Assembly (NCBI GenBank): GCA_977018835.1
Contig: OZ361258.1
Location: 1,674,001-1,738,000 of the forward strand
Source: Minutocellus sp. GHC0000111
Taxonomy: Eukaryota
Direction: 5' to 3'
DNA: 64,000 nucleotides
Shown here one piece after another: positions 5,084-64,000 of the stretch (its first letter is position 1; the number at the start of each line of letters is the position of its first letter). The notes under the pieces were generated by a model. That model was not told the DNA's origin and made no database searches. It was given only the letters and a program-made list of their open reading frames with translations. The translations under genes and the position numbers were made by a program.

Positions 5084-5538
5084 CTATCTTAGCCGTACAG
5101 TCCGGCTACTGTATGTACTACGTAGCTAGAGTAGGCTTAGCGCTTTGCCGGATGCCGACCGACCGACCGGCATGGGCGGGCATGGACCACCCACATGGAT
5201 GGAGGACCACGGGACGGACCACACAGCGGCCGAAGCGGCGAAGCACCGAAGCACCCATCGGCGAAGTTTGTGTTCTCGCTGGCTGACTGGACACTGGACA
5301 TCCACAGGATTTATTGAGTGTGTCAGACGTTTTCCTTAATTTGGTAACAAACACTGCACAGGATTTATCGAAAGTACTTACAACGTTACCGATCTGACAT
5401 TCGCACATGGAGGAAATCGATTTTTTGGCGTCGAAAATCTGACATTCGCACCTCGATGTCTGGCGAAGAACGGGCATCCGAAAAGGAACTGCTTAATAAA
5501 CAGAACCGCCGCACAGAATCAACCACTCATTCAACGAA

Positions 5539-5612
5539 CAAAGCAAAGCAAAGCAAAGCAAAGCAAAGCAAACCAAACCAAACCAAACCAACCAAACCAA
5601 CCAAACCAACCA
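5539..5612 (+). repeat. (CAAAG)n(CAAAC)n microsatellite
   Basis: Read directly. An analogous (CAACC)n(CAACA)n tract precedes the paralogous ORF at about 10710-10746. Confidence 0.9.
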
Positions 5613-5623
5613 AAGAACCACTC

Positions 5624-6158
5624 ATGACCGCATCATCATCGTTCGGAGACAGTGCCATCCTCGCCGATGGAAGCTCGTTGTCGGTGGTCGTCCTCGAAGG
5701 CGTCCTCAATGACGTAAATGATGATTTAGGCCTGCCTCGTAGACGACGAAGAACAAGAACAAGACGAAGAACACCCAGAGGTCATCCGCAGACGGAGGAA
5801 GGAACGTCGAGAGAGGCAGCGTCTCCTCCGCCGAAGCCGGGGGCAGAGGGCCTCTTCTTCCAACTCTGCACACGTCGACGCCGATGCTCATCAGCACCAA
5901 GCCGAACGGCAGGACCTCCTTGCCGTCTCGGCCACCGCCGCGGCCATTGCGCCGGACCTGCTCTTCAACCCTCGTGCTTGCGAGCTCCATCCGCTCGCGC
6001 TCGCTCCCACCATTCTCGCCGCCGTGGAGAACATGGCCATCAGCACCAACAACTTTGACAGAGAAAACATTGATAACAACATGCTTTCTGACGACGATGC
6101 CGTGGCCGCCACCGAGTCTGCTTCCGACGACGACGGTGACGAGTCCTTCTCAGCTTAG
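5624..6158 (+). pseudogene. Frameshifted paralog of the acidic ORF at 10757-11260
   Basis: Shares MTASS..., SVVVLEG(V/T)LND, GGAAGGAACGTCGAGAGAGGCAGCGTCTCCTCCGCCGAAGCCGGGG and the 3' end, but the reading frame is broken. Confidence 0.8.
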
Positions 6159-6507
6159 GCTGGCCGCTTTCCAGCTTTCCACGGTCGTCTCTACCTGCTA
6201 TTCACATCATCACATGCTATTATGCACACAAATGCGACGCGCGAAGGCCATCTTGCGCTCATAGGAATTCCTATGTGTGTGCATGTAAAGTCGACCGACG
6301 ACGAGTGCTGTTATGTAAAAATATCTCGCTCCTCTTTTTCTAAATACCAGCAATGTAAAGAGACGACACAAGAAATGCTACATCTACCTCTACTAGCTAG
6401 AGCTAGCTCCTACGTAGCTAGGTACAGCTCAAGAGATTCATCTCGTCTGCGTCGTAGATGACAAAGTCACATGCACCTATTCGCCATCCTCTTTTGTTTG
6501 GCCCACA

Positions 6508-6856: not shown

Positions 6857-7148
6857 TCATGATTTTTGTGTAGCTACATGTAAGTTCCAACTCAAAAATC
6901 TCGAGTCGAATGAGTCGAACGGAAGGTGCCGCTGACGCGGCAATTTTTCCCATGAATCCCGAAAACCGCCTTACTAGCTAGTATGTCAAAACATGCTCGT
7001 TTCATCCATCAGCCCTCGCCGATCTGACATTCCCACATCTCGGAAATTGCAAACATTGCAGTCCGTTCGTCACTTTTTTGTCACTTTTCCACGGTCAGGA
7101 TAAATGTTCTTTGCAATGCTCTTTGCAACACGATGAATAAATTAAATA

Positions 7149-10100
7149 CCTTTCGAGTTCAGAGGATTTGAAAGTGACGTGATGATGACGTATTAGAAAC
7201 ACGACCACACCAGACCAAAAATCCAAGCTCACTTTTTCTAACTCCGAGGAATAAATGACGGCCAAGATGGAAGTCGGGGCAAGAACCAAGTTATGGTCAC
7301 CAACTTCTACATATAGTCGAGAGATATTGTGCACCAGAACCAATAAATGTACATTATGTGATGATTTTTTTCGACATTTGCATTCCTCACCCCGGGAAAA
7401 AATGCATTTTTGGAAGCACCAAATCAAAATGTAATGAATAGAAATGGACATGCTATGATAAGTTATAGCAAATCAATGACTCCATCGTCTTCATCATTTT
7501 CATCTATGTCGTCCTCAATGTCATCATCTTCGCCGGGAGCATCAATTGGCCAGAGTGGTTCACCATCCTCTTCAGCTTCTTCCTCGGCAATTTTTGCGAG
7601 AGACCAGCCTTTCCCCGTCTGGTCTCCACAAGATTGTTACCGCCACGACTTCTCTTGATGTTGTTATATATCACTGGAAGTTTTCCAAATACATTGAGAA
7701 AGGCCTCTTTTGATGCGACATTGGCCCATACTTTCATCACAGTCTTGTCAAGAGCATTCGCATCATTCTTCTGACCGCGATGCTCCTTTTCGACGGCCGA
7801 CTGCAAAGACATCCAGATGCCGAGATCAAGAACATTTGTCTCGGGCGACCGAGGAACCTGCTGGATTATCTCAATCTTATATTTGTTTTTGAGGTCCTCG
7901 GTGTACTTCTCAACTGCTTCATTGGACCCATGACCGCCGGCATTGTCCATCACAAGACATGCAACATCAGACTCCTGAACATTTTGTGGATCCCACTTCA
8001 CCCAATGATGTGCGTCTCGAATCGCCTTCCCGACCTCATTCACAGTCTCCAACATCCATTTGGAGTCGCAGCTACAGTCCTTGGTAACCTTATCGCCCCG
8101 TTGATACCGCACCCCGAGCTCAAGGTCGTCGATCTCAACCTTCACCTTCTCTCCATTGCTATCAGGAGTGTGTCGCTTGAGACTCGAGATCTTTTGATTG
8201 TAGCCAACAGCGGCATGCTTGCGACTTTTTGCCTGACCGTCGGATTTATAGTCCTCGCATTGAATTTCCAATCGCTCTGTAACAAACTCAGAAAGGCCGT
8301 AGATTTCGGCAATGTGGTCGCAAAGATGGCCGGCGGTCATGTCAGCATTCTCGTCGTAAATGTCGCGCCAATCTTTGTCATTTTTTAGCGCATCGTTGAC
8401 CTTAGCATCTGGAGAGAAATTCTGATTACGCGTAAGCTTTTCCACCTTCTGCTCCCTGGCGACTCTCTTGATCATGATGCGCCCATTGAAATCAACGTCT
8501 TTGGTTTCATCCTTCATTGGTCGGCCAACAACTCCAAGACACATAACTTTGACAGGGTGTCTTCTGGATCGAATTTTCGGGCTTGCCTCGGAAGCATGGA
8601 TAGACGCGAGGTTCGGACTACTTAGTTCTTCGTCAGAAAGTGGCAACATCTTGATCTTTCGTCGCCGAGTAGTAGTGTAAAACCACTTTTCATCAAGATA
8701 CGCTACAGGAATGTTGGGATCGGTCGTAATGTCCTCCCACTTTTCGATCCAATCAAGTCGCTTCCTACAATGTTCGGGGGTGAGCCTCGGCTTCTCGATC
8801 GACGACTTCTCCTTGCCGCCTTGCTTTTTCCACCAGCGAAAAAGCTGAAGACGATGGAGACTAATTGTCAGCCTATCTTCATCTGGAGTAGCTGATTTTG
8901 CGCTCATGCAGTCAGCTAGCTCCTTAAAGGTTGCCATCGCACCCTTCATCCGAGTAGCATGCCGATGCAGCTCGCGGAGATGTCCTGGCTTCTTCTCCTC
9001 GATCATGTCCGTGCATGCCTTCCTTCCACGAACCTCCTTTCTGCCGATGGGATTGCTGATGCCATCAGTAAGGCTTTTGTAGAGCTGGTCTCTCCACTTG
9101 TAAAGCTGAGAACCACCGGTTGACTTGGCATAACAGTGATCGTACGCAACTTGCCGACACGCGGCAGTTGCAATTTGTTGCCGGTCTTCATACGTGCGAG
9201 TTGGGTCGCCGTATCCCCACCAATCCGCGAGAGCCACGGCGCTGAACCGCATTCTTTCATTCGCCTGCTTTTCTTTTCTGATTGGCATTGGTTCGGTGAC
9301 GGTTGCATTGGGACGAGGAGGACGGAGCATGTCATCGTTGGCCATCCGAACAACAAAGTCGAGGCCGAGAGCGACCTTTACCTGTTCATCAATGTCACTG
9401 GAGGTGGCACAGACAACGGAAGTATCGGCTCCTCCTAAACCTTCATCATTGGGGGAGGCTGCAGCTGCTTCAGTGGCGGAAGTATCACCAGTTCCCTTCA
9501 GTATGCTGAGGAGACTTGCTGGCATCCAACCCAGTTTCTTGGCCTCGTCGACTAGTGATTTTACTCTTGCTTCGCAATGCGCTGACTGCACCTCCTTTCT
9601 GTGAGCTGACAACCTCTCACCTAGCTTAGTAGCTAAGACAGTCGAGCGCCCAGAGAACAGAACTTCATCGGGATTTCTTTTCTCGTGCACCTTCTGTCCC
9701 TCCGGTCCAGAGAATTTCGGGCGGTTGTCCTCCTTCTTTTTACGCAACCTGTGAGCACAAACACAAAGCGCCCTGCGTCTTGTCTTCCCTCTCGGCCGAC
9801 ACGTCGACAAGTGCAACTTCAAACTACAATGCTCCTTGAGATGTTGCTGCATATCCTTCCATTTTTCCTCGTTGTACTGTAGCTCATACTTTCCTCCACC
9901 GACGGACTTGGAACGCAACAAGTCGGCCTCGATGAAAGCAGGGAGGACGTCTTCCCATTTCTGCCGAGAACCAACACAAATGTCATCTTTGCCGCAGGAA
10001 TCGGGGGTTACTCTCCACCACAGATCCTTACCAGCCCTTCGAATGACATCTGCTGCAAGGAGAAAGGCCATGGGGATAGGAGGAGGGGCCGTCCTCTTCT

Positions 10101-10591
10101 TCGCCGACGACGGTGACGGTTTGGCGGGCGAATTTGACCGTGGCCGCTTCTTCGACGTGTTTGCGCTCGGCGATGGTGTTTTCGGCTCAGCTGCCGCCTT
10201 TGCCGCCTTCCTGGATGCCTTGGTGTTGCCTCTCTTGCTCCCTGAGAACGAAGTTCTGCTGCGTTTGTATTTTTTGGGCGTGGTCTGGTTGGTCGTCGTC
10301 ATCGTCACAAAATTTGCGGGTTGCGGTGTGAGGGGGTGTGCGGGGGACCAAAAATATATGTGTTCCTGCCAGAATCTACTGGACCTGCGAATTCAGTGGA
10401 TACTACTGGTCGGTGGCAACCTACTGAATGAGCAGGTCCAGTAGATATCCACGAGTTGAGGAGTATTTGCGTTCCTCCCGAAGAGAATGTCGACTAACAA
10501 AACACGTGGTGGGAAATGAGAAATGGGTGCAAGAATGACCTTTTTTAGGGGTTATTGGTATACCCTCTACAAATCCTCTGAAACCGAAAGG
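7149..10591 (-). mobile_element. Tc1/mariner DNA transposon (DD39D type), copy A
   Basis: 22-bp TIRs: CCTTTCGAGTTCAGAGGATTTG at 7149 and the reverse complement of CCTTTCGGTTTCAGAGGATTTG ending at 10591. TA target duplication at 7147-7148 and 10592-10593. Confidence 0.95.
7504..10308 (-). CDS. DD39D mariner transposase (934-aa ORF with a 2-bp frameshift near the C-terminus)
   Basis: Catalytic YLDEKWFY ... MDNAGGHG ... PRSPETNVLDLGIW, with 39 residues between the 2nd and 3rd Asp. An extra dinucleotide at about 7608-7612 replaces the acidic tail seen in copy B (native stop would be at 7463). Confidence 0.93.
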   Translation of the reverse strand: MTMTTTNQTTPKKYKRSRTSFSGSKRGNTKASRKAAKAAAEPKTPSPSANTSKKRPRSNSPAKPSPSSAKKRTAPPPIPMAFLLAADVIRRAGKDLWWRVTPDSCGKDDICVGSRQKWEDVLPAFIEADLLRSKSVGGGKYELQYNEEKWKDMQQHLKEHCSLKLHLSTCRPRGKTRRRALCVCAHRLRKKKEDNRPKFSGPEGQKVHEKRNPDEVLFSGRSTVLATKLGERLSAHRKEVQSAHCEARVKSLVDEAKKLGWMPASLLSILKGTGDTSATEAAAASPNDEGLGGADTSVVCATSSDIDEQVKVALGLDFVVRMANDDMLRPPRPNATVTEPMPIRKEKQANERMRFSAVALADWWGYGDPTRTYEDRQQIATAACRQVAYDHCYAKSTGGSQLYKWRDQLYKSLTDGISNPIGRKEVRGRKACTDMIEEKKPGHLRELHRHATRMKGAMATFKELADCMSAKSATPDEDRLTISLHRLQLFRWWKKQGGKEKSSIEKPRLTPEHCRKRLDWIEKWEDITTDPNIPVAYLDEKWFYTTTRRRKIKMLPLSDEELSSPNLASIHASEASPKIRSRRHPVKVMCLGVVGRPMKDETKDVDFNGRIMIKRVAREQKVEKLTRNQNFSPDAKVNDALKNDKDWRDIYDENADMTAGHLCDHIAEIYGLSEFVTERLEIQCEDYKSDGQAKSRKHAAVGYNQKISSLKRHTPDSNGEKVKVEIDDLELGVRYQRGDKVTKDCSCDSKWMLETVNEVGKAIRDAHHWVKWDPQNVQESDVACLVMDNAGGHGSNEAVEKYTEDLKNKYKIEIIQQVPRSPETNVLDLGIWMSLQSAVEKEHRGQKNDANALDKTVMKVWANVASKEAFLNVFGKLPVIYNNIKRSRGGNNLVETRRGKAGLSQKLPRKKLKRMVNHSGQLMLPAKMMTLRTT

Positions 10592-10756
10592 TAGGCCTAC
10601 ATTTTGCTGTTCGGCCGCCACGCCCTCGAACTTCACTCCCGACCTTGTACCGTAATTATCCAGCATCACAGTCTGTCATAAAAAATAAACAATCCTCCTT
10701 TGCGACGAATCAACCCAACCCAACCCAACACAACACAACCCAACCAAGAACGAATC

Positions 10757-11260
10757 ATGACCGCATCGTCAACAACATCCTTCGAAGACACCTGTGCCGC
10801 CTCGTCCTCTCCTTCGGAATCATCGTCGTCCGTGGTCGTCCTCGAAGGCACCCTCAATGATATACATGGAGGCCTCTACGACGAAGAACAAGAACAAGAC
10901 GACCAAAGCCCGGAAGTCATCCGCAGGCGTAGGAAGGAACGTCGAGAGAGGCAGCGTCTCCTCCGCCGAAGCCGGGGACAGAGGACCTCTTCTTCTCAGC
11001 ACCAAGCCGAACGGCAGGACCTCGTCGCCACCACTGAAGGCACCGCCGCCCTGGATCTGCTCTTCAACCCTCGCGCTCGCGACCTCCATCCTCTCAAGCT
11101 TGCTCCTGCTATCCTCGCCGCCGTGGAGAACACGACCATCAGCACCAACACCGTTGTCAGTGACAGCAACGTGCTCTCTGACGACGATGCCATGGCCGCC
11201 GCCGAGTCTGCTTCCGACGACGGCGACGACGAAGGTGACGAGTCCTCCTTCTCGACTTAG
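10757..11260 (+). CDS. Small acidic low-complexity protein of unknown function, duplicated at 5624-6158
   Basis: Open frame MTASSTTSFEDT...GDESSFST* with a basic RRRRKERRERQR patch. A degenerate paralog lies 5 kb upstream. Confidence 0.5.
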   Translation: MTASSTTSFEDTCAASSSPSESSSSVVVLEGTLNDIHGGLYDEEQEQDDQSPEVIRRRRKERRERQRLLRRSRGQRTSSSQHQAERQDLVATTEGTAALDLLFNPRARDLHPLKLAPAILAAVENTTISTNTVVSDSNVLSDDDAMAAAESASDDGDDEGDESSFST

Positions 11261-12397
11261 GCCGTCCGCTCTCCACGGTCTCTGTCTGCTCTTCGCACCG
11301 CAGACTATACAATGCAACGCACGAGACCCAGCCAGCTAGCACACATGCACATAGACAGTCGAATGATGCCGGCAAGAGAGTATCTTGCCATGCCATTCTT
11401 TTGAATGAAGAGAGAAGCAACATGTATTGCACATCAGTTACTTTACAAATAAGTAAAAAGAAATTAAATTAGTAAAGCCAATTTTGATTACGATTACGAT
11501 TGCATGACCCACCTCCTCTTGCATCTGCGCAGGATAGTAGAACAACTTCCAACACAAGACGCAGCTTGTGGATCCCTGCAAATAAATACCGTCATTTATT
11601 TACTCGTCCTCTTCCTCCGGGTCATCCACAATGTAAAGTGGACCACCGCTGAAAGTCCAAACATGATGCATTCTTCGGGACGAGGCATCGTCGTCTCCCT
11701 GAAACGGCATCGTATTGCCAACCGAAACATATCTGGGCCAAAAGGATTGTCCCCACTCCATGTTCTCGGTAGAGATGACCTGACGAAAGTCGCATGCCTT
11801 TATGTTGAAGCCCAAATCAACGAGACGTTGGTCCCGAAGACGATTTGTTCCTCCTCGATCTTGTGTCTCTTCGACAAATTGAGGACCTGTCTCCGTATTC
11901 GACGACATCCTGGCTATCTACCTTACTCACCGCCATCCGAGCACGTCACAAAGACAAGACCCATCATCTCCTTTCCCGTGATCCAAACCACACTACATGT
12001 ATTGAACAATACTTCCGCCCCCTCAGTTCACCTCCTCCCCGAGATGGAATCGGATAGGTGACCCCAACCGGACTCAGTGGCCGGTTTTTGCAAACTATTA
12101 TTTCACAACTCACACAATTATTATTTATATATATCAGGCCCGCCAATGGATCGTCGGCAGCTGCTCTTCACAACGTTTCTACACCATTCTGATGTCAAAC
12201 CAAGTTTTCCTGATGCCATTTTGTATGGTGCATTTTTGGCATGACTTCTCTCTAGTGCCCCTCAAAGTGTCCCTGCTTACCCCAATTGTGGGGTCTGTTC
12301 GGTAGGAGATCTATTCTCTGACTCGAGCCTAGCTCGTATGTCGGCTCGCCGATATCCCTCTAACCGAGGCATCGATACATAGACTCCTAAACTGCTA

Positions 12398-15300
12398 CCT
12401 TTCGGTTTCAGAGGATTTGTAGAGGGTATACCAATAACCCCTAAAAAAGGTCATTCTTGCACCCATTTCTCATTTCCCACCACGTGTTTTGTTAGTCGAT
12501 ATTCTCTTCGGGAGGAACGCAAATACTCCTCAACTCGTGGATATCTACTGGACCTGCTCATTCAGTAGGTTGCCACCGACCAGTAGTATCCACTGAATTC
12601 GCAGGTCCAGTAGATTCTGGCAGGAACACATATATTTTTGGTCCCCCGCACACCCTCACACCGCAACCCGCAAATTTTGTGACGATGACGACGACCAACC
12701 AGACCACGCCCAAAAAATACAAACGCAGCAGAACTTCGTTCTCAGGGAGCAAGAGAGGCAACACCAAGGCATCCAGGAAGGCGGCAAAGGCGGCAGCTGA
12801 GCCGAAAACACCATCGCCGAGCGCAAACACGTCGAAGAAGCGGCCACGGTCGGTCAAATTCGCCCGCCAAACCGTCACCGTCGTCGGCGAAGAAGAGGAC
12901 GGCCCCTCCTCCTATCCCCATGGCCTTTCTCCTTGCAGCAGATGTCATTCGAAGGGCTGGTAAGGATCTGTGGTGGAGAGTAACCCCCGATTCCTGCGGC
13001 AAAGATGACATTTGTGTTGGTTCTCGGCAGAAATGGGAAGACGTCCTCCCTGCTTTCATCGAGGCCGACTTGTTGCGTTCCAAGTCCGTCGGTGGAGGAA
13101 AGTATGAGCTACAGTACAACGAGGAAAAATGGAAGGATATGCAGCAACATCTCAAGGAGCATTGTAGTTTGAAGTTGCACTTGTCGACGTGTCGGCCGAG
13201 AGGGAAGACAAGACGCAGGGCGCTTTGTGTTTGTGCTCACAGGTTGCGTAAAAAGAAGGAGGACAACCAAACGAAATTCTCTGGACCGGAGGGACAGAAG
13301 GTGCACGAGAAAAGAAATCCCGATGAAGTTCTGTTCTCTGGGCGCTCGACTGTCTTAGCTACTAAGCTAGGTGAGAGGTTGTCAGCTCACAGAAAGGAGG
13401 TGCAGTCAGCGCATTGCGAAGCAAGAGTAAAATCACTAGTCGACGAGGCCAAGAAACTGGGTTGGATGCCAGCAAGTCTCCTCAGCATACTGAAGGGAAC
13501 TGGTGATACTTCCGCCACTGAAGCAGCTGCAGCCTCCCCCAATGATGAAGGTTTAGGAGGAGCCGATACTTCCGTTGTCTGTGCCACCTCCAGTGACATT
13601 GATGAACAGGAAAAGGTCGCTCTCGGCCTCGACTTTGTTGTTCGGATGGCCAACGATGACATGCTCCGTCCTCCTCGTCCCAATGCAACCGTCACCGAAC
13701 CAATGCCAATCAGAAAAGAAAAGCAGGCGAATGAAAGAATGCGGTTCAGCGCCGTGGCTCTCGCGGATTGGTGGGGACACGGCGACCCAACTCGCACGCA
13801 TGAAGACCGGCAACAAATTGCAACTGCCGCGTGTCGGCAAGTTGCGTACGATCACGGTCATGCCAAGTCAACCGGTGGTTCTCAGCTTTACAAGTGGAGA
13901 GACCAGCTCTACAAAAGCCTTACTGATGGCATCAGCAATCCCATCGGCAGAAAGGAGGTTCGTGGAAGGAAGGCATGCACGGACATGATCGAGGAGAAGG
14001 AGCCAGGATGTCTCCGCGAGCTGTGTCGGCATGCTGCTCGGATGAAGGGTGCGATGGCAACCTTTAAGGAGCTAGCTGACTGTATGAGCGCAAAATCAGC
14101 TACTCCAGATGAAGATAGGCTGACAATTAGTCTCCATCGTCTTCAGCTTTTTCGCTGGTGGAAAAAGCAAGGCGGCAAGGAGAAGTCGTCGATCGAGAAG
14201 CCGAGGCTCACCCCCGAACATTGTAGGAAGCGACTTGATTGGATCGAAAAGTGGGAGGACATTACGACCGATCCCAACATTCCTGTAGCGTATCTTGATG
14301 AAAAGTGGTTTTACACTACTACTCGGCGACGAAAGATCAAGATGTTGCCACTTTCTGACGAAGAACTAAGTAGTCCGAACCTCGCGTTTCCATGCTTCCG
14401 AGGCAAGCCCGAAAATTCGATCCAGAAGACACCCTGTCAAAGTTATGTGTCTTGGAGTTGTTGGCCGACCAATGAAGGATGAAACCAAAGACGTTGATTT
14501 CAATGGGCGCATCATGATCAAGAGAGTCGCCAGGGAGCAGAAGGTGGAAAAGCTTACGCGTAATCAGAATTTCTCTCCAGATGCTAAGGTCAACGATGCG
14601 CTAAAAAATGACAAAGATTGGCGCGACATTTACGACGAGAATGCTGACATGACCGCCGGCCATCTTTGCGACCACATTGCCGAAATCTACGGCCTTTCTG
14701 AGTTTGTTACAGAGCGATTGGAACTTCAATACGAGGACTATAAATCCGACGGTCAGGCAAAAAGTCGCAAGCATGCCGCTGTTGGCTACAATCAAAAGAT
14801 CTCGAGTCTCAAGCGACACACTCCTGATAGCAATGTGGAGAGAAGGTGAAGGTTGAGATCGACGACCTTGAGCTCGGGGTGCGGCATCAACGGGGCGATA
14901 AGGTTACCAAGGACTGTAGCTGCGACTCCAAATGGATGTTGGAGACTATGAATGAGGTCGGGAAGGCGATTCGAGACGCACATCATTGGGTGAAGTGGGA
15001 TCCACAAAATATTCAGGAGTCTGATGTTATGTGTCTTATGATGGACAATGCCGGCGGTCATGGGTCCAATGAAGCAGTTGAGAAGTACACCGAGGACCTC
15101 AAAAACAAATATAAGATTGAGACAATCCAGCAGGTTCCTCGGTCGCCCGAGACAAATGTTCTTGATCTCGGCATCTGGATGTCTTTGCAGTCGGCCGTCG
15201 AAAAGGAGCATCGCGGTCAGAAGAATGATGCGAATGCTCTTGACAAGACTGTGATGAAAGTATGGGCCAATGTCGCATCAAAAGAGGCCTTTCTCAATGT

Positions 15301-15839
15301 ATTTGGAAAACTTCCAGTGATATATAACAACATCAAGAGAAGTCGTGGCGGTAACAATCTTGTGGAGACCAGACGGGGAAAGGCTGGTCTCGCAAAAATT
15401 GCCGAGGAAGAAGCTGAAGAGGATGGTGAACCACTCTGGCCAATTGATGCTCCCGGCGAAGATGATGACATTGAGGACGACATAGATGAAAATGATGAAG
15501 ACGATGGAGTCATTGATTTGCTATAACTTATCATAGCATGTCCATTTCTATTCATTACATTTTGATTTGGTGCTTCCAAAAATGTATTTTTCCCGGGGTG
15601 AGGAATGCAAATGTCGAAAAAAATCATCACATAATGTACATTTATTGGTTCTGGTGCACAATATCTCTCGACTATATGTAGAAGTTGGTGACCATAACTT
15701 GGTTCTTGCCCCGACTTCCATCTTGGCCGTCATTTATTCCTCGGAGTTAGAAAAAGTGAGCTTGGATTTTTGGTCTGGTGTGGTCGTGTTTCTAATACGT
15801 CATCATCACGTCACTTTCAAATCCTCTGAACTCGAAAGG
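12398..15839 (+). mobile_element. Tc1/mariner DNA transposon (DD39D type), copy B, inverted relative to copy A
   Basis: Same TIRs. TA at 12396-12397 and 15840-15841. Nearly identical to the reverse complement of 7149-10591. Confidence 0.95.
12679..15526 (+). pseudogene. Frameshifted DD39D transposase of copy B
   Basis: ORF pieces 12679-12963, 12920-14482, 14445-14849 and 14846-15526 tile the copy A protein. Frameshifts at about 12850, 14386 and 14835. Confidence 0.92.
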
Positions 15840-16114
15840 TACATGTAAAACGTTTTGCAGTGCTTTTTCAAAGCCCGAAAATATTTACAGGAGTCCTTAC
15901 TCTACGCCTTGACATCGACAACCCACGTGAACGAACCACAACGCCTCCAAGCCATTGGCCTGCTGCCGCCGGCCCGCCACATTAGTAAGCAATACGAGGC
16001 CGGCCAATATCACAGCAAGCAAGGGAGCTGTGTGCAGTGGCCCAGTGGAGCTACGTAGCTGTCCGATCGGTCGTACTGCTGCTTCTGCAATCGAACGATT
16101 AATTACCAACGACG

Positions 16115-20900: not shown

Positions 20901-21465
20901 CTGTCGCGGCCGATGGCTTTTCATTGTTATTGGCGGGAGTGTTGGTGTCACCCTTTTGCTGCACATTGACATTGGCATGTCCGTCCCCACCACCGATGAC
21001 ATCGTCAACATGCCGCGAATAGAACGCCCGGAGCAACGACCCAAGCAGGTCCGATTCGTCCACCTCGCCCTTACCGAGATCATCTTTGCCATTATCGCCC
21101 AGCGTCCAGTCGTCCCACCTTCGTACCTGCGCCTCTGTCATGGTCTCTTCGTCTGTGTCCTCCGGATAGTAAATCGTGTACAACAATTCGTCCTCTTGGT
21201 TGCGACCAGTGTCCTCCTCCCCAGCAGGTTCGGACGTTCCAACTACATATCCGATAAAGTAACGCTTGTAGTTCGGAAAGTACTTCTTTATGCGCCTTCC
21301 GATGTCATAATTGGGTGATGCCGACATGTTTGGTGGTGGTTCGGTTGGGTTGGATGGCAGCAAATAATAAATCATCACATGATCATGGTGGTGCCGGTGT
21401 CGGGTGGCGGGCCCGCCACCTGACCTGCGGACTGGCGACTTGATGATGCAAAACAGAAAGCGCAA
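17998..21465 (-). CDS. DNMT3: C5-cytosine DNA methyltransferase, DNMT3-like, with two Tudor-like and one chromo-like N-terminal domains (likely start 21327)
   Basis: Motif I EVFAGIGG, IV GGPPCQDHSKVN, VI FLVENV, VIII HRDRVFYFNW, IX RERLMGLP and X LIGNGFSV. Tudor-like IGRRIKKYF and LGQRVSKYF...YHVKYDDGDKE. Chromo-like RVVDHR...KFLVEW...SSW. Confidence 0.85.
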   Translation of the reverse strand: MRFLFCIIKSPVRRSGGGPATRHRHHHDHVMIYYLLPSNPTEPPPNMSASPNYDIGRRIKKYFPNYKRYFIGYVVGTSEPAGEEDTGRNQEDELLYTIYYPEDTDEETMTEAQVRRWDDWTLGDNGKDDLGKGEVDESDLLGSLLRAFYSRHVDDVIGGGDGHANVNVQQKGDTNTPANNNEKPSAATVVPQGDAKPSTDNKKAEKKKAARKPRHRYRLGQRVSKYFVSEGEYFNGTIDELVHASELHTGISGVNYYHVKYDDGDKEHLAEAAISNIVIQGDFAPGYEADDGDEDADYESDKSDQDNDEDYVYDSEDDTKPPARKRNRISGEEKVSSAAASNANCTSTDAKYAAELAAAEAGENCEYVEGGRTFEARVVDHRIVQSGGEESRPILKFLVEWRRKVDVAAVAAAAAGAGPIADSDSDSTSSSSAAAAMEIESAAIVPSTSPLSSSWIRLDEFIAPSAALAYLNNNTSLPAWEKEGLVKDVTAFRNALERDNIFETSSDEPSSCGEIDVCCYLCRCGGHSSKLAKCQNVSKYHRGCCHGLDNNDKLESFLSSLGRVQERFIKQTTPAGGGASDDDCTDKAILERCASTSATLKPEAVSKRLEEDKKMQRHLTNVLDSRKRSAIARESRSDNDLALAAPESRRWTDETAVAVHKRFQQLCRARRENPNLKREAIVLEVFAGIGGAAVALKKLGIAVKRNIVVEHDRAALAVHRYNHDPAYGLGIAQDDGVEYVYSLYETYEELEANIQSIVREQGPIDIVIGGPPCQDHSKVNARRMGAEGMHGRYMRDFPTLISLVQKYNKAFHSFDELFFLVENVPGSQDATADYKVSEYRCDAANFGPCHRDRVFYFNWQPDSFPADEHPAGGSTRFNDGWMMPTMLQKGIDAKVMTLLASKGRTMDKTLFKYRIKDDAPAIDPGEDRPASHVGDRQLFDTNDRERLMGLPVGYVEQPIEDLFANLRVASTVGLEAFEAREWRDVLPPMYWSFVGLGPGGFTHTIDDSFEVNDPRRIAFALQEINQRTKVCLKDYHYGWHLIGNGFSVPQVVFLLRPLQQLFQSKEYPGYTDTKFAWEEEEEEEEDEDGDDARAGNSNEEQEIGAPHQESSAVENAENREDKSDANSATEKAQVKIPREKVCRSDIDSSDDKYSL

Positions 21466-21575
21466 CTGGCCGAACTCCGATCAGAAGAGCTTGAACAGCC
21501 GAACATGGCATGACATGACACAAATCGAAGCGTACTGTGTAGCGTTGTTCCTCCTTACGGTGCAGTGTATGAAAC

Positions 21576-49901: not shown

Positions 49902-51014
49902 GGTTGGTTGGCAACAGACAACCTGAAAAATAAGGCGGCGCTGCTGCAGCTCATGATGATGCATGGCCTGCATGAGCGAAAATTCCAAACAGCCAAAAAT
50001 TGCGCCTTGCCGGCATTTATTGTTAGTGGTTTTGTGTCAATAGCAGCCTGGTTTTAGTGCCTTTCACATCCCCAAAACCACTCGCTCAAAAACGGCCTTT
50101 CACCAAATCAGAAACCTTCCCTCTGACACAAGTTGGTCCATTTCCGTTCTGTTCTCCCTCGATTGTCGCGTCGTCTGCGCGTCATGAAAACGGCCGGCCG
50201 GGGCGGGGCGGGGCGGCTTCAGCATGCAACCATTCCAGAAATCTCGAAAGAACGGCCGGGCCGGAACGAGAGAGAATGGGGACAAAATTGCAAAATCAAC
50301 CCGCCCCCCAACGTTTTGTCATGGATAGAAACCATCCCATTTGGATGGCATCGTTTCTGATTGAAAGAGGCTGACCGGCACAGGCCTCTGCTCACATTTT
50401 TGCTCACATCGCCTTTGTCCCGGCTGGCTGACGACGGCAACGACGAAACTTGGGAGAGGGCACAGGGCACAAAGATGCAGCATTGACTTGTTGACTTGAT
50501 GCTCCACGGTGCATCACAAAGCCTCCCCCCTGTCCTTTCGCCAGCCACGCACTAGCAGCTACACACAGCCCTTCCATTCGAGAGCATCCAACCACACATC
50601 CACTCTCTTGCTCCCACACTCGCAAGCAGCAGCACCAATGAATCGGCCACTTTTGGATCGCTCGGCGGCCGTCGCAATGACGGGCGGCGGAAGCGCCAAC
50701 AGCAAATCGTCGTCGTCGTCTATGGTTCCAACTGCTGCTGCTCCCGGCGAGACGTTCCATGCAGCACCAGCCAAGCACAGCGGCGGCCTCGACAGCTTTG
50801 AGCTTGCCCTAACCTAGGTATTAGATGGATAGAAAAACGATTTGTATCTAGCTTTTTAGCGGGCTAGTCCTGTGAAAAGAATCCTCTTGACACCTGAGAA
50901 GGCACAGAACAATGACTCTTCGAAGGACGCAATGATTTGAAAGGGGAGCGAACCTTGAGAGCGAACCTGTCATCTGTCCCAAATAATAAAGTACATGTGG
51001 CCTGAGCCTGCGTT

Positions 51015-56111: not shown

Positions 56112-56518
56112 GAATTCTTCTCGTCGATGTCGTACCCGTTCGGTGTTGGTTGTTCTGCTGGCAGTGCTGGTAACACTACTACCCAACAACAACCTCCAAG
56201 GCGAAGAGGGGGTCTCAAGCGTTCGACGCCGTCGTCCCATCTCATCAATCCAGCGGGCATGCCCGGTTACAACAGCAGAGCGGCCACCGCTCTTCCCACC
56301 CATACTCAGTAGCAGCCATGCAGCAGATTCTAACTCTCAGTCAGTCCGATGCTCTGGTGGCCATCGAGGAGGTGCTCCGAAAGGTCGGCGATGGCCATGC
56401 CGCCGCGGCTGCCTAGAGCTAGCTTGAAGTAGGGACGCAAGGAGGCATCTACCATTATGGTGGCCAAAATCAGAGCCAAACGGATGAATCCACACTGCTA
56501 CTTTCATGTATATGGGCC

Positions 56519-58661
56519 CGGGTGCCCTCTGCAATGCTCCTGATATATTCCAAGAGAAAATTAATGATTTATTCTATGGTTTCGAGCATATCCAAGCATA
56601 TCTGGATGATGTGCTTCTTACTACAAAAGATACATGGGATAATCACCTCGAGGAACTCGAGCGTGTGCTTCTCAGAATTGCCGAGGCTGGCCTGAAAGTA
56701 AATGCAGACAAATCATTCTTTGGCCGCTTCGAATGCGAATACCTTGGATACTGGGTGACGCGCGATGGCATCCGTCCCCTCGCAAAGAAAGTTGAAGCAG
56801 TTGCTAATCTTGCTCCGCCAAAATCCGTCAAGCAAGTCCGTCGATTCGTCGGCCTTGTCAATTACTACCGCGACATGTGGCCTCGACGAGCACATATTCT
56901 CGCGCCTCTCACAAAACTGACGTCCAAGAAAAATACATTCGTATGGACGACCGTCGAACAAGAAGCGTTCGACGAGATGAAGCGTATCATCGGACGTGAC
57001 GCGCTCCTCGCTTATCCTGACTTCGATGACGAGTTCATCATTCACACCGACGCAAGCAAAACCCAACTCGGGGCCGTTATTTCTCAGAAGGGAAGGCCTA
57101 TCGCATTCTATTCCCGCAAATTGTCTGACGCGCAGACGCGCTACCTAGGTACACGACAACGGAACGAGAACTTTTGAGTATCGTAGAAACTCTCAAGGAA
57201 TTCAGAAACATCCTTCTTGGCCAGAAAGTCAAGATTTATACGGACCACAAAAATCTGACATACAAACAGTTCAATACAGACCGCGTGATGCGCTGGCGTC
57301 TGCTCATTGAAGAATATGGTCCCGAAATTATTTATGTCAAAGGCCTTGATAACGTAGCAGCTGACGCTCTTTCCCGGCTCAGCCTATCTGGCCTTCCGAC
57401 CGAAAATGACCCTGAAACCTTCGACGAATCGTTTGTTTCGAACGTCGAATTGGCGGAAAGATACGACGTCGCGTTGGATCGCGCTGACGTTGGCTCAATG
57501 CCTTTATCGTACAAAATGTTGCGTAAATACCAAAATCGGGACGCAAGCGTATCTGACCAAATTAGCGCTAAGAAACTACATACGCAGTCCTTTCGTGGGG
57601 CCGGAGGCAAGCAAATTGACCTCGCCTGCACATCCCAGGGGAAGATCTATGTACCGAAACCCCTGCGTAAGCACGTGATTGAATGGTACCACACGTATCT
57701 TATGCATCCTGGAGCGACCAGGACGGAGGAAACAATAAAGCAACACCTCTATTGGCCAGGCCTACAAGATGAAGTGAAGGCCGCAGTAACAAAATGCGCG
57801 ACTTGTCAGAAAAGCAAGAAGCAAATTCGCAAGTTTGGCCATCTGCCAGAGAAAGTAGCAGAAGCAGAACCATGGGAAAAATTATGTGTCGATCTTATCG
57901 GACAATATACTATCCGCCGCAAGGGAAAACATAAGCCTGACTTACAGCTGAAAGCCGTAACAATGATCGATCCAGCAACCGGATGGTTTGAGATCGCTAC
58001 TTACGATGATAAAAGGTCGATGACCGTAGCCAATATTGTCGAGTATACATGGCTATCAAGATATCCACGTCCATCGGAAGTTACCGTCGATCGTGGCAAA
58101 GAATTTATTGGCAGTGCGTTCAAGGATGAACTCTGCGAAAAAGAACATGATATTGAGGTGAAATTTGCTACTACGGCAAATCCACAAGCAAACTCAATTG
58201 TAGAGCGAATACATCAGACCTTGGCGTCGATGGTTCGTTCCAAGGACCTCGAAACATCAGAAGATGTCGAATTCGATTGGCAAGGCGTTCTTGCCGCCGC
58301 TGCGTATGGAATTCGCAGTACATATCATACAACGCTGAAAGCAAGTCCGGGACAGCTAGTATTTGGACGTGATATGAAATTTAATGTTCGTCACGTAGCT
58401 GACTGGCGACTTATACGAGAGCAGAAGCAAAAGATAATAAAAAAGAATAATGAACGTGAGAACGATAGGAGAATTCCTCATCGCTATCGCCGAGGCGACA
58501 AGATATTGTTGCTCAACAAGCAAGCCAACAAGTACGAGCGTCCTTACCTCGGACCGTACAAAGTCCTCGAGTTTCTCCCTGAAAGCGGGAATGTCAGGAT
58601 TCAGAAAGGGCCAATTTCCGAACGCGTCAACATCAGACGAGTGACGCCGTTCCGGGAATAG
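56519..58661 (+). mobile_element. pol: Ty3/Gypsy pol, 5'-truncated (RT - RNase H - integrase), frameshifted by an 8-bp insertion at about 57144
   Basis: RT YLDD. RNase H IHTDAS and YTDHKNL. Integrase HHCC, CVDL, TVDRGKEF and VERIH. Domain order RT-RH-IN. Confidence 0.95.
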
Positions 58662-58708
58662 TAAGGAGGCCTACAGGAAAACAAGGCAACATCGAGCGTG
58701 GGGCCGAA

Positions 58709-58906
58709 TGCAACATGTGATCGTCTGAATGACGATAATATTACGTCATATGGATACGCTCGCTGTTCCCGTCGAGCACACATCATGTGTCGTGCCAAGA
58801 TCTGGCAACGTGTCTCCCAACGTAGATGCCGATCGCATCAAGTTGGAGATCAATCTTATCAAATCTAGTTTAGTCTCTCTGCTCTAGTCACAATCTATTT
58901 CCAACA
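58709..58906 (+). mobile_element. Probable 3' LTR of the Gypsy element
   Basis: Purine-rich GTGGGGCCGAA immediately before TG at 58709, and a candidate ...AACA end at 58906. No 5' LTR is available for comparison. Confidence 0.45.
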
Positions 58907-60454
58907 ATTTTGTGCAACTGCTTTGTTCTACCTTTTCGTGTCTCTGTACCTCGTGCATGGTGCACAGTTGTAAACATGTGCGTTTGTTCTTGCTTAAGAT
59001 TTAAATAAGGTGTAGCTTAATTTTGTAGCACACACTGGCAAAATGTATTGGATGTTCACCCTGGCAGGCTTTCTCCCTTATTTCCCCCCTTTTTAGTTTC
59101 TGAATGACGTCATTATCTGACATGTAAAAATGCTGGATTCCCCTCAATTTTAAATCCTGTTTGGTTTTCGTGCCTTTGTGGATCTCCATTCTTTCATGCT
59201 TAGCATGACTTCTAAGTCACTAGTGCTCATTCGAAAGGTCTTCGCCCATCTGATCAGATCCTCTTTTTGCTTTTTTCCCCAGCTTGGTTTGATTGTATTT
59301 TTGTCTAGTCTTTCAATCCATTTTTCTCTCAGTTGCACTTTCTTGCACAGTGTTGCTCCGTCTCGTTGGCATTTGAGGCCTAGGACTCTGTGGTGATGAA
59401 GCCAAGTGAGAGGTCGCGCACCGGCGACAATGAGACGCCAACCAGAGGCGACGGAAGAACTCCTTGCCGAGAGGAGAGCCAATGAACGCATCCATGGAAA
59501 TTCGCGGTGATTCTTGGAGACGAGAGTGAGACAAGGGAGAGTGCGAAAGGCCATGGAAGAGAAAAAGGTTGTCAAAAGAGTGCTGCTGGGGGGGGGGGAG
59601 ATGACTCCAGAAAGCAGACTGCCTTGGCGCACCGAGACAGGACGAAGGCGCACCTGCAGATAGTTCCGATTACAGCTACAACACAACTGCTAGAAACTTG
59701 AGAACAGTTGACATCAAACAGAAACGGGATGGGTGCACACGAGAAGAGGGGGGAGAAGTGAACAACAATGAATGGTGCGATGACACTGCACGCAGACACG
59801 CCGCATGAAAAAAGGAAGGAATGGTTGTAGCACGAAGTGCCAATTTACAAATAATAGAAAAAGACGCACCCACTAGGGCACCCGGGCCATCTGCTGCGGC
59901 CTCCCTCCTCTCCCACCCCGACACGAACACCGCCTCGAATGAGAAGCCACGCTGCTGTTGATGCCGTGGGATGCGTACGTACGTATACATACGTACGGTA
60001 CGTACGGTGATCAGACCACTGACTCAGTGCCCTCTCCTGACCCTTGATCCATTTGCCAACGACATCTCCGATGGCCCATTTTTCATCTACGTAGGTCCTG
60101 TTCACCTCTACTAGCTATATCTATCTAGCTTAGCTTTAGGACCTCTTAGCAGACCTACGTGACACATCTTTTCCACCCGTGCTCGCCCCCCATTTCGGTT
60201 CGCACCTCACCGGCTTGTGTGTCTTGGGCTCTCTCACTCGTCACGCAAGAAAAACCGACACATCTTCAATCGGCCAAAACGACCGTTTCTTTCGACAATG
60301 TTGGAACGACGATCCAATCCCTTCCCCGAAAGTCCTGACCAGATCGACCCATGTCCAATCGACCACACTTCTCTGGATCGAACCTTCTGTCGATCATCAC
60401 ACGTCTCGCAGCAACGCCGCCGTGCTGCCTGTCTTCGCTGACTGAAACACCAGC

Positions 60455-61640
60455 ATGAATCCCGACGCAGTTTTTGGCCAACCTCTCGGCGCAGCGCCGA
60501 TTCTCCCCACCAAGTTAATCACACGCATGAATGACCCAGGACAACCTCCCCAACGCGAGCGTGTTGCCAAAGAGCGCTCAAGGAACTTCAACAAGCGGCG
60601 GCCAGCACTCCAGCAGGGGGTGCAATGACCACAGCCTCGGCCATTTGGGCCTCGTCGTCAGCGATGCCGAACACACCACCAAAAGCAACGGCCGACCACA
60701 TGTGCCTCCGGCAAATCCTGGCCCCAGCCCCACCATTCCCGCCGTGGCCAATCTAGACCAACGCGATCGTGCAAAATCCGGGGACATTGCATCGAAAAGG
60801 GCCACTGCAACTTGCACGAGCAAGTCAACGCGGCGCTCAAGAATCTCCTCCTCGACTCGATCGACGCCGTCTACATCAATCATCTCGAAGATGACATGCT
60901 CGGTTTCCAGCCAGTCACCATCCGCCAAATCATCGACAGCATTGCCGATCGCCACTTCTTGAAATTCAACGAGACTCAGAAGGAGGAGCTAGAGAAGCAG
61001 TGCGACGGGGGACCCATCGACACACCCACATCGCCACATTCAACAAAGTCTTCAAGGCGTTTGAAACGGCCGGCGAACCCTTCACCAACAAGCAAAAGGT
61101 CTCCAAGTTCTGCCGCTCCGTGCGCAGGTTCTCATTGGCAAAGAGGGCATGCGAGGACTGGGGGACGACAGACCGGAGGCCGAACGCACGTGGGCCAACA
61201 TGCAGTCGGACTTCCGCGATTGGCATGACAAGAAGATGGCCAACACCACCACCGAAGCGGCAGGACATCATGGCGCGAATTTGGCCTCATCGGCCTCGGA
61301 CGATCCATTTCTTTCTCGAGCCGATCTCCTTTTGGCTGACACCACCGAAGCCCTCAAGACCAACCAAGCCATGATGGCGAACCTCGCCAAAAAGAGCAAC
61401 GAGAAGGACGATGCCATTGCCAAACTTCGCCAAGAAACAGCTTCTGTCGGCGCCGCTCGAGGAGAGCAGTTGCGGCACCGACAGGGCAGCCGCCGCTGCT
61501 GCCACTGCTGCCCGTTTGGCCCGTGAAGGAATTCAAAGCCGAGACAGAGTTGAGGACTCCGGCAGTTTTACCCAACCCACCGGCGACGCCACCAGCGGCG
61601 GCTGCGCCACCCGACCTTCTCAGCAAAAGAGAAGAACATG
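60455..61640 (+). mobile_element. gag: Degenerate Ty1/copia (CoDi-like) gag
   Basis: GHLGLVVSDAEH...PANPG, ALKNLLLDSIDAVYINHLEDDMLGF, TWANMQSDF and AGHHGAN across several frameshifted ORFs. Confidence 0.75.
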
Positions 61641-61659
61641 CCGGGTGAGTGGCCAATCG

Positions 61660-64000
61660 ATTCATTGGAGTGTCCAAGGGAGAGGGCGGTGCAGCAGAGG
61701 AGGGGGCAGCGGCAGCAGATTGGGAGGGGCTAACGCTGCTCGCTGCACCCCCGCCGACAGAGGAAGGTCCGGGCCTGTCAGACGAGAAGGTTTCGCTCAG
61801 GGTGATGGCTCGATTGAGCATGTCCTTCAGCTTGGAGTTCTTGCTAACAAAAGCATCCATCCCTGCCTTTTTGCCGCGATTGATGTCTTCTTCACCAGCG
61901 TGGGCCGACAGGCCCACGATCTTCTGGTGAAAGTCCGGCCGATGTTTGGATTCCCATGTGCGACATTGCTCGACACAGTCCAAACCATCAAGGACGGGCA
62001 TCAAAAAGTCGCAAAAGACCACATCAAACTTTGACGATTGCAAGGCCTGGAGACCCTGCATGCCATCGGAGGCGCAGGCAGCTTGGAAACCAAGGTTGGC
62101 CAACGCCCTTCCGATGGACTTGCGAATGACCACAGAGTCGTCAACTGCCAAAGCTCGTTTGGTGTCGGAGCCGGAATCAGGACCCGACCCTTTGATCGGG
62201 ACGAGGCTCTCTTCTCCTGCAGCCACCGCAGCGTCGTTGCCATCCTCCATCGCCTTGGAGACTGCCTCGTAAACCTCCTTGGCATCGCACTTGTCTGAAT
62301 CTTGGACCGAGATCATCTTGCGCTTCTCGCTGCTTGACGAAGGCGAGTCCGATGCCTTGGGACTGGACGAGGCACTAGTCTCGGTGGTGCTTGGCGCCTC
62401 CTCGGGCGAGCAGCTGATCGACAGGGGAACGGCGAACCAAAACATGGACCCAGTCGGCTGGTCCTTGGCGGCAGAGTCCCAGCTCTCCTCCTTCCTCGGT
62501 CGGCAACCGCACCGGCCTCCGAGACTCGACACATTGATGGCGACGGAGCACAGGCCAAGACCGGGCTGGTCGTGGGTGGGCAGAGAGGCGCTGTTCAGGT
62601 CCGTGGAGAAGGGTGAGCACAGCTTCTGCCTCTGCTCGCTGTCGACGCCGGTGCCGGTGTCCCTGCACTCGAACATGAGCATGGACTTGCTTTGGCCCAA
62701 CTTCTTCACGTAGATGCGCATCCGAATGTAGGAATCGGATGATGACAACGATGATGATGAGGCGGCGGGAGTGTGCCTCGCGGCACTCATGAGAAGGTGC
62801 AGGGCCGACCGGAACAGCTTGAGCTCGTCGGAGAGGAGTTCGTCGGGGACCGTCGGGTCGGGTCGGCCACGATCTCGATGGGAGGGGAGGTGCCGTCCGA
62901 AGGGCAGGCTTGCGCCGCGGCCGTGCGGAGGGTGTCGACATAGTCCGACAAGACGACGGTGTGAAGTCTCGACGACGACGCACCTCCCGAGTTGAGTGTG
63001 GAGAGGGACGCCACGCTGGCGCTTCGCGACAGGCCGCCACGTCGAGCATCGCGACCGTCACCAGTGCCATCCTCCTCCTCCTCGTCGATGCTGGGCATGG
63101 GCAGCACCCCTCCCTTGGCTGCTGCCGATGACGACGAAGTGCCGCCGCCGCCACCGCCGGCGGAGGAGGACGACCGCCTGTTGTCGTTGGCAACGTCGGC
63201 CAAGTCGGTGCGGAAGTTGTCAATGGTTTCCGTGCAGATCTTGTCCATGATGGAGAGGGAGGACAGGGCCGATCGGATGTTGGCGTCGGCTTCGGTGCTG
63301 GCACTGGTGCTGGCATCGGACTCGACCATTTTGGACAGCATCTTGCGGGTCGACTCGAGGGGCGTGAGGAGATCGCGGGCCATGCACGCCATCTGTTGAG
63401 GTTGCGATTTGTGGGGTAGGTGAAGCAGGTAAGGAAGGGCATGTCGGAAACAACATGTGTGAGGCAACATGGGGCACATTAATGCATGCATGCATGTACA
63501 TATGTTGATAAGAGGTGCAATGAATGAAACGCACAACACACAACATGCAGTGCAACACACATGCGCATGCGATGGCATGTCACGACCACGACATCACTAT
63601 GACCGGACGTACCACCTTGGACCGGTCGGCCGCCAGGGCCATCCGCTCCTTCCGTCGGTTGACCATGGCCTCCATGACGAGGGCGGCCAGTTCCTTGAGA
63701 TTTTGCTTCTCCATCAGCGTCAGGCCGGCGGGTCGGGTCTTGGTGTCGATGATGCACAGCGTCCCGAGCTTGTACCCCTCGGGACAGATGAGGGGGGCAC
63801 CGGCGTAGAAGCGGATGTGGGGCGCGCCGGTGACGAGGCCGTTGTTGCGGAAGCGCGGATCCTCCAGGGTGTTGGGGACGATGAGGAGGTCCTCGGTGGA
63901 CTGGATGGCGTGGGCGCAGAAGGCCACCTTGCGGGGGGTTTCGCGGACGTCGCCCAGGCCGCGGTTGGACAGGAACCACTGCCGCCCAATGTCGATGAGC
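61660..64000 (-). pseudogene. GAF - histidine kinase - receiver hybrid kinase, degenerate; runs off the window end
   Basis: GAF: FCAHAI...DPRF..N.LVTG.PHIRFYAGAPL...LGTLCIID. Intron at about 63393-63612. H-box reads ARDLLTPL (His replaced by Arg). HATPase: FECRDTGTGV, GLGL, GSMFWF. Receiver: VDDS, CDFLMPVLDG. Frameshift near 62800-62880. Confidence 0.85.

Follow-up and report, generated by a model that had tools for sequence, protein, structure and literature searches.

To our knowledge, the heritable mutators directed at repeats, i.e. repeat-induced point mutation (RIP), decay of methylated cytosine and APOBEC editing, all act on cytosine and lower the GC content; RIP can, furthermore, leak into neighbouring genes. 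Deamination by TadA, ADAR and Tad2-Tad3 makes A read as G and favours adenines preceded by T or U, U-A-C being the site of bacterial TadA. Polymerase eta is characterised by a WA motif, with substantial shares of AA sites and of transversions, and by short insertions. A-to-G changes of polymerase eta arise via dGTP opposite T and are enriched in late-replicating H3K9me3 heterochromatin of human cells, according to the accessible part of PMC13716900. In the diatom Phaeodactylum tricornutum, DNMT5 CG-methylates copia-like (CoDi) elements, and this methylation may spread to nearby sequence (PMC9998398, accessible part). The stretch described here comprises 64,000 nucleotides of Minutocellus sp. 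GHC0000111 (GenBank assembly GCA_977018835.1, contig OZ361258.1, positions 1,674,001 to 1,738,000, hereafter the window). Near its 3' end, the gag relic of a likely copia-type retrotransposon and the adjoining relic of a hybrid histidine kinase have lost almost all TA dinucleotides, mostly to TG or CA.

Depletion of TA and its direction

Between 60160 and 61560 only four TA are left (60516 TTAA, 60754 CTAG, 60872 CTAC and 60990 CTAG), an observed/expected ratio (o/e) of 0.06, and from 61560 to 62700 there are five (o/e 0.11). The first count is exactly that of a preliminary description of the locus, which gave a handful more up to 62700 and also stated that CpG stays abundant; CpG o/e is normal in both parts (1.03 and 0.82). 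The window below 60157 has a TA o/e of 0.59, and the sliding-window plot proposed in that description places the desert beneath every one of 588 windows of 1400 bp from this region (minimum o/e 0.24, minimum 13 TA), including the 70 that are GC-matched (GC 0.55-0.62, median TA o/e 0.53). The desert shows no shortage of AA or TT (AA o/e 1.11-1.18), and the TA/AT ratio is 0 to 0.16 across 60501-62500.

Sites of the form purine-TA-pyrimidine (RTAY) occur elsewhere in the window at a density of 702 per 60117 bases, which gives P ~7e-18 for a gap as long as the saturated zone of Table 1; the next longest gap measures 1146 bp. The 12 TA surviving in 60160-63400 comprise six YTAR and six one-strand sites and not a single RTAY, against expected shares of 13% YTAR and 34% RTAY. 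RTAY and YTAR stand at 208 : 76 in the gene-dense DNA of the window, the 208 RTAY lying within 13.9 kb. The originally proposed extent of 60158-62700 is depleted but too short, no RTAY being present between 60118 and 63497. The sharp edge reported near 60157 is likewise a real change in TA, but it marks the 3' end of a TA-rich long terminal repeat (LTR) and not the border of the mutated domain; the flank 58880-59955, whose open reading frame (ORF) has no Pfam match, is also affected. All these controls are sequence from within the window and separate mutation from selection less cleanly than spectra of single-nucleotide polymorphisms among strains.

Homologues fix the direction of change as a loss of TA, not a gain, as had been argued earlier, and they do so independently of the mariner pair treated below. 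All five motifs listed in the preliminary description were located in the sequence, and the homologue residue is Tyr at each. Six kinase homologues (P0002-P0007; P0001, which repeats internally, and the distant P0008 were excluded) agree with one another at 301 columns of 61447-62859. Of the 23 columns at which the window departs from them, 15 are single TA losses (nine Tyr to Cys and six others). Nine of the 11 unanimous Tyr are now Cys, compared with 0/9 in a GC-matched tocopherol cyclase (three homologues; Fisher p 3e-4), where TA losses account for 0/3 differences. At silent sites, T precedes A at codon ends in 4/98 cases in the kinase vs 142/685 in seven host ORFs (p 1e-5), and NTA codons number 0/138 vs 81/1101 (p 8e-5). 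Among 41 related kinase proteins, all holders of the respective motif have Tyr at GLGLYS (37), GRYGYRP (37) and EQYR (38); a 54%-identical kinase cluster deviates, with Cys in the TYA column and Phe in two further ones. TA-derived amino-acid changes amount to 0/3 in 62856-63392 and 0/1 in the GAF exon, where the Tyr are kept (2/2).

Turned to the strand on which A becomes G, 19/20 events of the mariner pair and 21/24 events from short-read runs, i.e. 40/44, fall on T-A-pyrimidine (TAY), vs 119/210 background sites (p 7e-7). In the pair, which we take to be mariner-like from its motifs (Pfam gave no transposase match), 20 of 28 mismatches oppose TA to TG or CA, or TG to CA. Among transitions alone they amount to 20 of 23 mismatches, and to 20 of 21 once two beside an indel or complex block are set aside. 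His makes up 62/122 of the gag Tyr codon changes after a purine and 11/52 after a pyrimidine (p 4e-4), as the TAY motif predicts; this count excludes two columns for which the window contains no DNA. Secondary changes of AAY are located at 61549, 62081, 62145, 62787 and 62838, and two TA transversions at 9380 and 62147.

Changes among gag copies and strain haplotypes

The gag family was examined in 35 near-identical copies, among those listed of a 71-member cluster, nearly all on contigs of 0.2-5 Mb and apparently of the same species, with the gag of a sister lineage (P0137) as reference. Fifteen Tyr columns contain 147 Tyr, 115 Cys and 79 His, and two further Tyr columns are almost wholly Phe. 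Thr/Ala, Ile/Met/Thr and Asn/Asp are also exchanged frequently, as expected where TA spans codon positions; the remaining non-TA changes are mostly singletons, and the copies are otherwise >90% alike. All 35 patterns are distinct, in part since coverage differs between copies. All four Tyr/non-Tyr combinations are present in 38/72 column pairs and one copy has Tyr at 8/8 columns, therefore most gag changes postdate insertion. The all-Tyr state of nine gag proteins of the sister cluster is not read as absence of the process, as short contigs can collapse copies. By eye, the tail of one copy (P0127) corresponds to the mariner end of the window translated in antisense, which suggests a mariner inside that copy.

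Four public short-read runs from three studies (X1, X2, X3 and X6, the last being Illumina RNA) derive from the same or a near-identical organism and were placed at 85% likeness; run depth was not used as copy number. No run has the window's haplotype, and the gag/kinase junction is found in none. TA-derived changes account for 24 of the best 40 of 89 differences. At five sites TG and CA occur in different haplotypes, and two of these read Cys vs His at one Tyr codon (61964/5, Cys in the window, His in X2 and X6; 62504/5, Cys in the window and X6, His in X1, X2 and X3), i.e. independent events on one TA. X1 differs from the window at two positions in 61910-62830, X2 at 19 in 61813-62830.

The kinase is still transcribed, as its intron is spliced in X6. 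The X6 contig over 62349-62753 has one difference from the window, and at least 4/5 of the Cys codons covered occur in this RNA contig. The preliminary description had named intact, expressed homologues with the same Cys/His residues as evidence against TA loss. Such residues are thus expressed, but related diatom homologues keep Tyr (with one exception, Cys at the TYA column), and the X6 codons therefore represent transcribed damaged alleles and not normal residues. It had also suggested spread into a host-gene copy that was either duplicated or adjacent to a transposon. A host kinase adjoining a transposon is indeed affected; duplication, however, finds no support, as the four runs contain no second kinase copy at 85% likeness, their kinase cover is nearly flat and single-contig over most of 61955-62776, and X1 shows two half-depth alleles at bubbles. 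The kinase is apparently single-copy. An alternative kinase allele (X1, X2 and X6) skips 89 bases within 62830-62920 and has three others; relative to the frame without the 5-bp duplication of Table 1 this amounts to -81 and is in frame, so that this allele may have restored the reading frame.

Short duplications form a second signature. All of the best 12 of 31 indels against the runs are extra bases in the window's copy, and 8/10 multi-base insertions are exact tandem repeats (four in homopolymer runs), with a chance expectation of 14% for 2-mers and 7% for 3-mers. Tandem duplications of 2-5 bp co-occur with TA losses; sibling gag copies possess eight single-residue insertions and four deletions, and indels of 2 and 4 bp separate the two mariner copies. 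Frameshifts from duplications may matter more for inactivation, because the substitution of TA by TG or CA makes no stop codons.

Anatomy of the locus

The element is likely of the Ty1/copia (CoDi) type, judging by its TG...CA LTR and its gag; the assignment to CoDi is incomplete without the reverse transcriptase. In a sister element (L001), gag is followed by protease-like and then integrase-like motifs (read by eye), the pol has only sub-threshold Pfam support for copia-type filing, the reverse transcriptase is not on the contig, and a PDB search with this pol returned no match. Behind its integrase, the copia pol of L001 (1575-3878) possesses a PTM/DIR17-like Tudor domain (E 9e-12). The LTR in the window holds 19 TA and nine RTAY, seven of the latter in the short tract 59976-60003; slippage might renew sites in such a short repetitive tract. 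The gag relic is frameshifted by 2-3 bp insertions, has His or Cys in place of Tyr and is truncated in its coiled-coil part. A scan of viral contigs with gag retrieved nothing, a metagenome scan retrieved two loci, neither from the window's own family, and a scan of genome contigs with a 23-base kinase pattern gave one chance bacterial match without extension.

In all four runs, the match to the window breaks off at 61444 for gag contigs and at 61443 for kinase contigs. The kinase match ends at residue 643 of P0002, which reaches 782, so that 139 C-terminal residues are missing here. The junction is a probable deletion with a 2-bp overlap, by which the rest of the element and ~140 kinase residues were lost, rather than an insertion site. 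No Pfam match to HisKA was obtained in the kinase relic. The corresponding box reads MARDLLTPL, and because 7/8 close homologues share MARDL(L/M)TPL (the eighth begins later), the missing phospho-accepting His is a family trait and not damage. One homologue cluster of 72-77% identity includes a protein of Arcocellulus cornucervis. The kinase intron contains 33 RTGY and RCAY in 220 bp, i.e. it is rich in TG/CA products.

Table 1. Positions of features of the TA-depleted locus and of the mariner-like pair in the window
Feature	Position	Strand	Remarks
Inverted mariner-like pair	7147-10594 and 12395-15841 (span 7147..15841)		98.8% identical, 3.4 kb
Left flank, relic DNA, same signature	58880..59955		RTAY 3, one-strand sites 16, YTAR 13
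5' LTR of copia-type element, TG...CA	59956..60151	+	196 bp, TA-rich, spared; loose contig ends at 59956 and 60151, raised depth
Saturated zone without RTAY	60119..63496		3379-bp gap
5' leader of element	60152..60454	+	one TA (60156, 5 bp past LTR); several small insertions vs other copies
gag relic	60455..61444	+	tblastn with P0105 and P0137; family table; indels
gag (+) / kinase (-) junction	61443..61444		2-bp overlap; contig ends in all four runs
GAF / HATPase_c / receiver hybrid histidine-kinase relic	61443..64000	-	Pfam, alignment, codon test
Kinase domains	GAF ~63993-63667, HATPase_c ~62829-62419, receiver ~62151-61810	-	Pfam above cut-off for all three
5-bp tandem duplication frameshifting kinase	62856..62865	-	also in runs X1 and X2, aligned gap-free there
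Kinase intron, GT..AG on minus strand	63393..63612	-	spliced in RNA run X6

Located 1.1 kb from the LTR, a gypsy element (56450-58870) has not lost its TA (o/e 0.74, 45 RTAY in 2.2 kb) and is either young or escaped. Its pol is frameshifted at 57140-57150 by an insertion TA-CCT-AGG-TA, which is likely a mariner excision footprint, as it equals the first and last three mariner bases. Two smaller regions may represent further affected zones, an RTAY-free stretch of 1146 bp at the 5' end and upstream of a DENN gene (49673-50819) and one of 947 bp on a diverged duplicate (5375-6322). An ORF of 1160 codons on the minus strand (18001-21480), 2.2 kb from a mariner copy, encodes a C-5 cytosine methylase domain and has a weak Tudor match.

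Possible causes and known systems

That a TA-loss process exists and is restricted to certain loci is hardly in doubt. Ordinary genes and intergenic DNA of the window keep TA, and the changes are heritable, affect both strands, prefer TAY, are copy- and haplotype-specific and took place at the DNA level, because an intron-bearing gene and its intron are affected. Our reading, to which we assign a probability of about 0.62, is a rewriting of TAY to TGY on both strands by a transposon-guided adenine-damaging enzyme that reached the adjacent, apparently single-copy kinase. This putative sequence-specific enzyme would change T-A-pyrimidine to T-G-pyrimidine. It would likely be guided to transposon chromatin rather than by repeat pairing, given a kinase that is apparently single-copy and only slight change in the closest repeat pair; either DNMT5 CG methylation or DNMT4 could provide such guidance. 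From there it likely spread ~2 kb into the kinase gene, and an origin of the kinase changes in the transposon nest is quite probable. Deamination (or excision) of adenine would be the lesion that is copied as G, and repair nicks would lead to short duplications and hence to frameshifts finishing off the genes. An adenine lesion is favoured because TA saturation leaves AA untouched; to prefer a lesion-making enzyme over an error-prone polymerase is nevertheless tentative and falls slightly short of an even bet. A wider scenario is speculative and rather unlikely as a whole, namely that Cymatosiraceae-type diatoms possess a natural genomic DNA adenine editor with TadA-like T-A-pyrimidine preference. 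Acting as a defence that mirrors RIP, it would be drawn to transposon chromatin, destroy elements by tyrosine loss and repair-born duplications, erase mariner TA target sites and kill neighbouring single-copy genes as collateral, with these gene losses still segregating among strains.

Several points weigh against the transposon-guided enzyme. Haplotypes without the gag/kinase junction also have TA losses in the kinase, their X1-X3 contigs end ~600 bases further, and spread from this very element is not established by the runs. The LTR, the nearby gypsy pol and the 98.8% mariner pair are spared or lightly affected, thus not all transposon DNA is targeted. At 60872 (gag column 138, CTAC) Tyr is kept in 25/25 copies, whereas other CTAC columns are changed in ~1/3 to 1/2 of them. 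A polymerase would account at least equally well for the few A-to-G changes at AAY, for both TA transversions and for the duplications. Furthermore, the 40 differences and 12 indels compared between runs were chosen by support, the 44 context events include both members of double sites, and the gag copies share ancestry, so that cell counts are not independent events.

The most serious competitor, though unlikely, ascribes the same locus-restricted process to a Y-family polymerase of the eta type that copies transposon heterochromatin, placing G opposite T and creating duplications by slippage. It offers a single cause for substitutions and duplications, and the secondary changes, often at AAY, and the two TA transversions suit it, but RTAY is gone over 3.4 kb while AA o/e still reaches 1.11-1.18, and the non-TA gag changes are mostly singletons. 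TA specificity and transition purity of mammalian polymerase eta are, moreover, far lower than observed here. A homology-triggered, RIP-like pairing process at TA, which would require that the kinase is or was duplicated, is improbable. The high-copy gag family is heavily affected, a diverged duplicate (5576-6173) also lacks RTAY, and diatoms have DNMT4, relatives of the fungal RIP enzymes (PMC9998398, accessible part). However, the four runs contain no second kinase copy at 85% likeness, no more than 20 events separate the closest repeat pair of the window (3.4 kb, 98.8%), TA is retained in the LTR, which is the most repeated part, and the chemistry is at A:T and not at cytosine. A gain of TA by RIP was rejected, as the homologues give TA as ancestral, and so was CpG decay, given CpG o/e of 1.03 and 0.82 and double sites at which homologues have Tyr or Ile (TA).

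As causes, GC content and codon usage by themselves were rejected; the sliding windows, GC-matched ones included, show the depletion to exceed both chance and the effect of GC content. A genome-wide bias from TA to TG/CA, visible only where selection has lapsed as in the dead gag and the dead kinase, has little probability. TA is low throughout the window (o/e 0.59), both genes are frameshifted, and the smaller RTAY gaps at 49673-50819 and 5375-6322 have no identified transposon; yet TA is kept at silent sites of host ORFs (142/685) and in gene-dense DNA (208 RTAY in 13.9 kb), a frameshifted gypsy pol retains 45 RTAY, and gag copies otherwise >90% alike are heavily changed at TA. Least probable is an artefact of sequencing or assembly, such as long-read miscalls at a modified base, or editing of RNA or during reverse transcription. 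The window and sibling copies are on Mb-scale contigs, and the X6 RNA contig lacks the small insertions seen in the gag copy. Miscalls are nevertheless rejected for the substitutions, as Illumina RNA contigs of X6 show TG/CA changes, partly the same and partly alternative; the 5-bp duplication is present in X1 and X2, changes occur on both strands and in the intron, and host ORFs are open up to 1952 codons. RNA editing fixed by retrotransposition is excluded by changes on both strands, in an intron-bearing kinase and in a DNA transposon.

Among described systems, the RIP of ascomycetes (Neurospora) resembles the locus in its dinucleotide-specific transitions on both DNA strands, concentrated in transposon copies and specific to the copy; here, TG and CA occur at the same TA and 35/35 gag patterns are distinct. 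RIP, however, converts CpA to TpA (C:G to T:A), lowers GC and creates stops, whereas at this locus TpA is the substrate (A:T to G:C), GC rises and no stop is possible. RIP raises TpA/ApT to an index of 0.89 or more (PMC7884421, accessible part), in contrast to 0 to 0.16 in 60501-62500. RIP requires RID/DNMT4 and takes place before meiosis. As to its trigger, duplicated sequence, the locus gives a mixed picture: the high-copy gag is affected, but so is a kinase without a second copy at 85% likeness in the four runs, and the LTR and the mariner pair are little affected. The outcome is RIP-like, but it is not RIP. DNMT5 silencing marks copia-like diatom elements, which resemble the present one in their TG...CA LTR and a gag with a C-terminal Cys/His knuckle, and is a candidate guide for targeting; as methylation it silences, and its decay would remove CpG, whereas CpG o/e is ~1 here and the gag table contains no change of Arg to Cys, His, Gln or Trp.

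Polymerase eta, as known from somatic hypermutation and tumours, shares with the locus A-to-G changes in DNA and, in human cells, a bias to heterochromatin (PMC13716900, accessible part); the changes described here are, in contrast, heritable and close to saturation, and they are confined almost entirely to TAY and to transitions. The natural substrates of TadA, ADAR and Tad2-Tad3 are RNA, whereas both DNA strands and an intron are changed here. A natural deaminase that acts on adenine in the genomic DNA of transposons is absent from the literature searched, and a TA-to-TG/CA process in transposons was not found in the open literature, most subscription journals and supplements lying outside the search. 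On this literature the TA-erasing process would be of a new kind, as it changes A:T to G:C in association with transposons, has a sharp TAY motif and escapes RIP indices. It would be a local GC-raising force and would bias LTR dating and dN/dS. The locus makes it testable in three ways, through the motif, through the duplications and through a host gene with independently altered alleles. Should the agent prove to be a DNA adenine deaminase, it would represent a natural counterpart of the laboratory-evolved adenine base editors.

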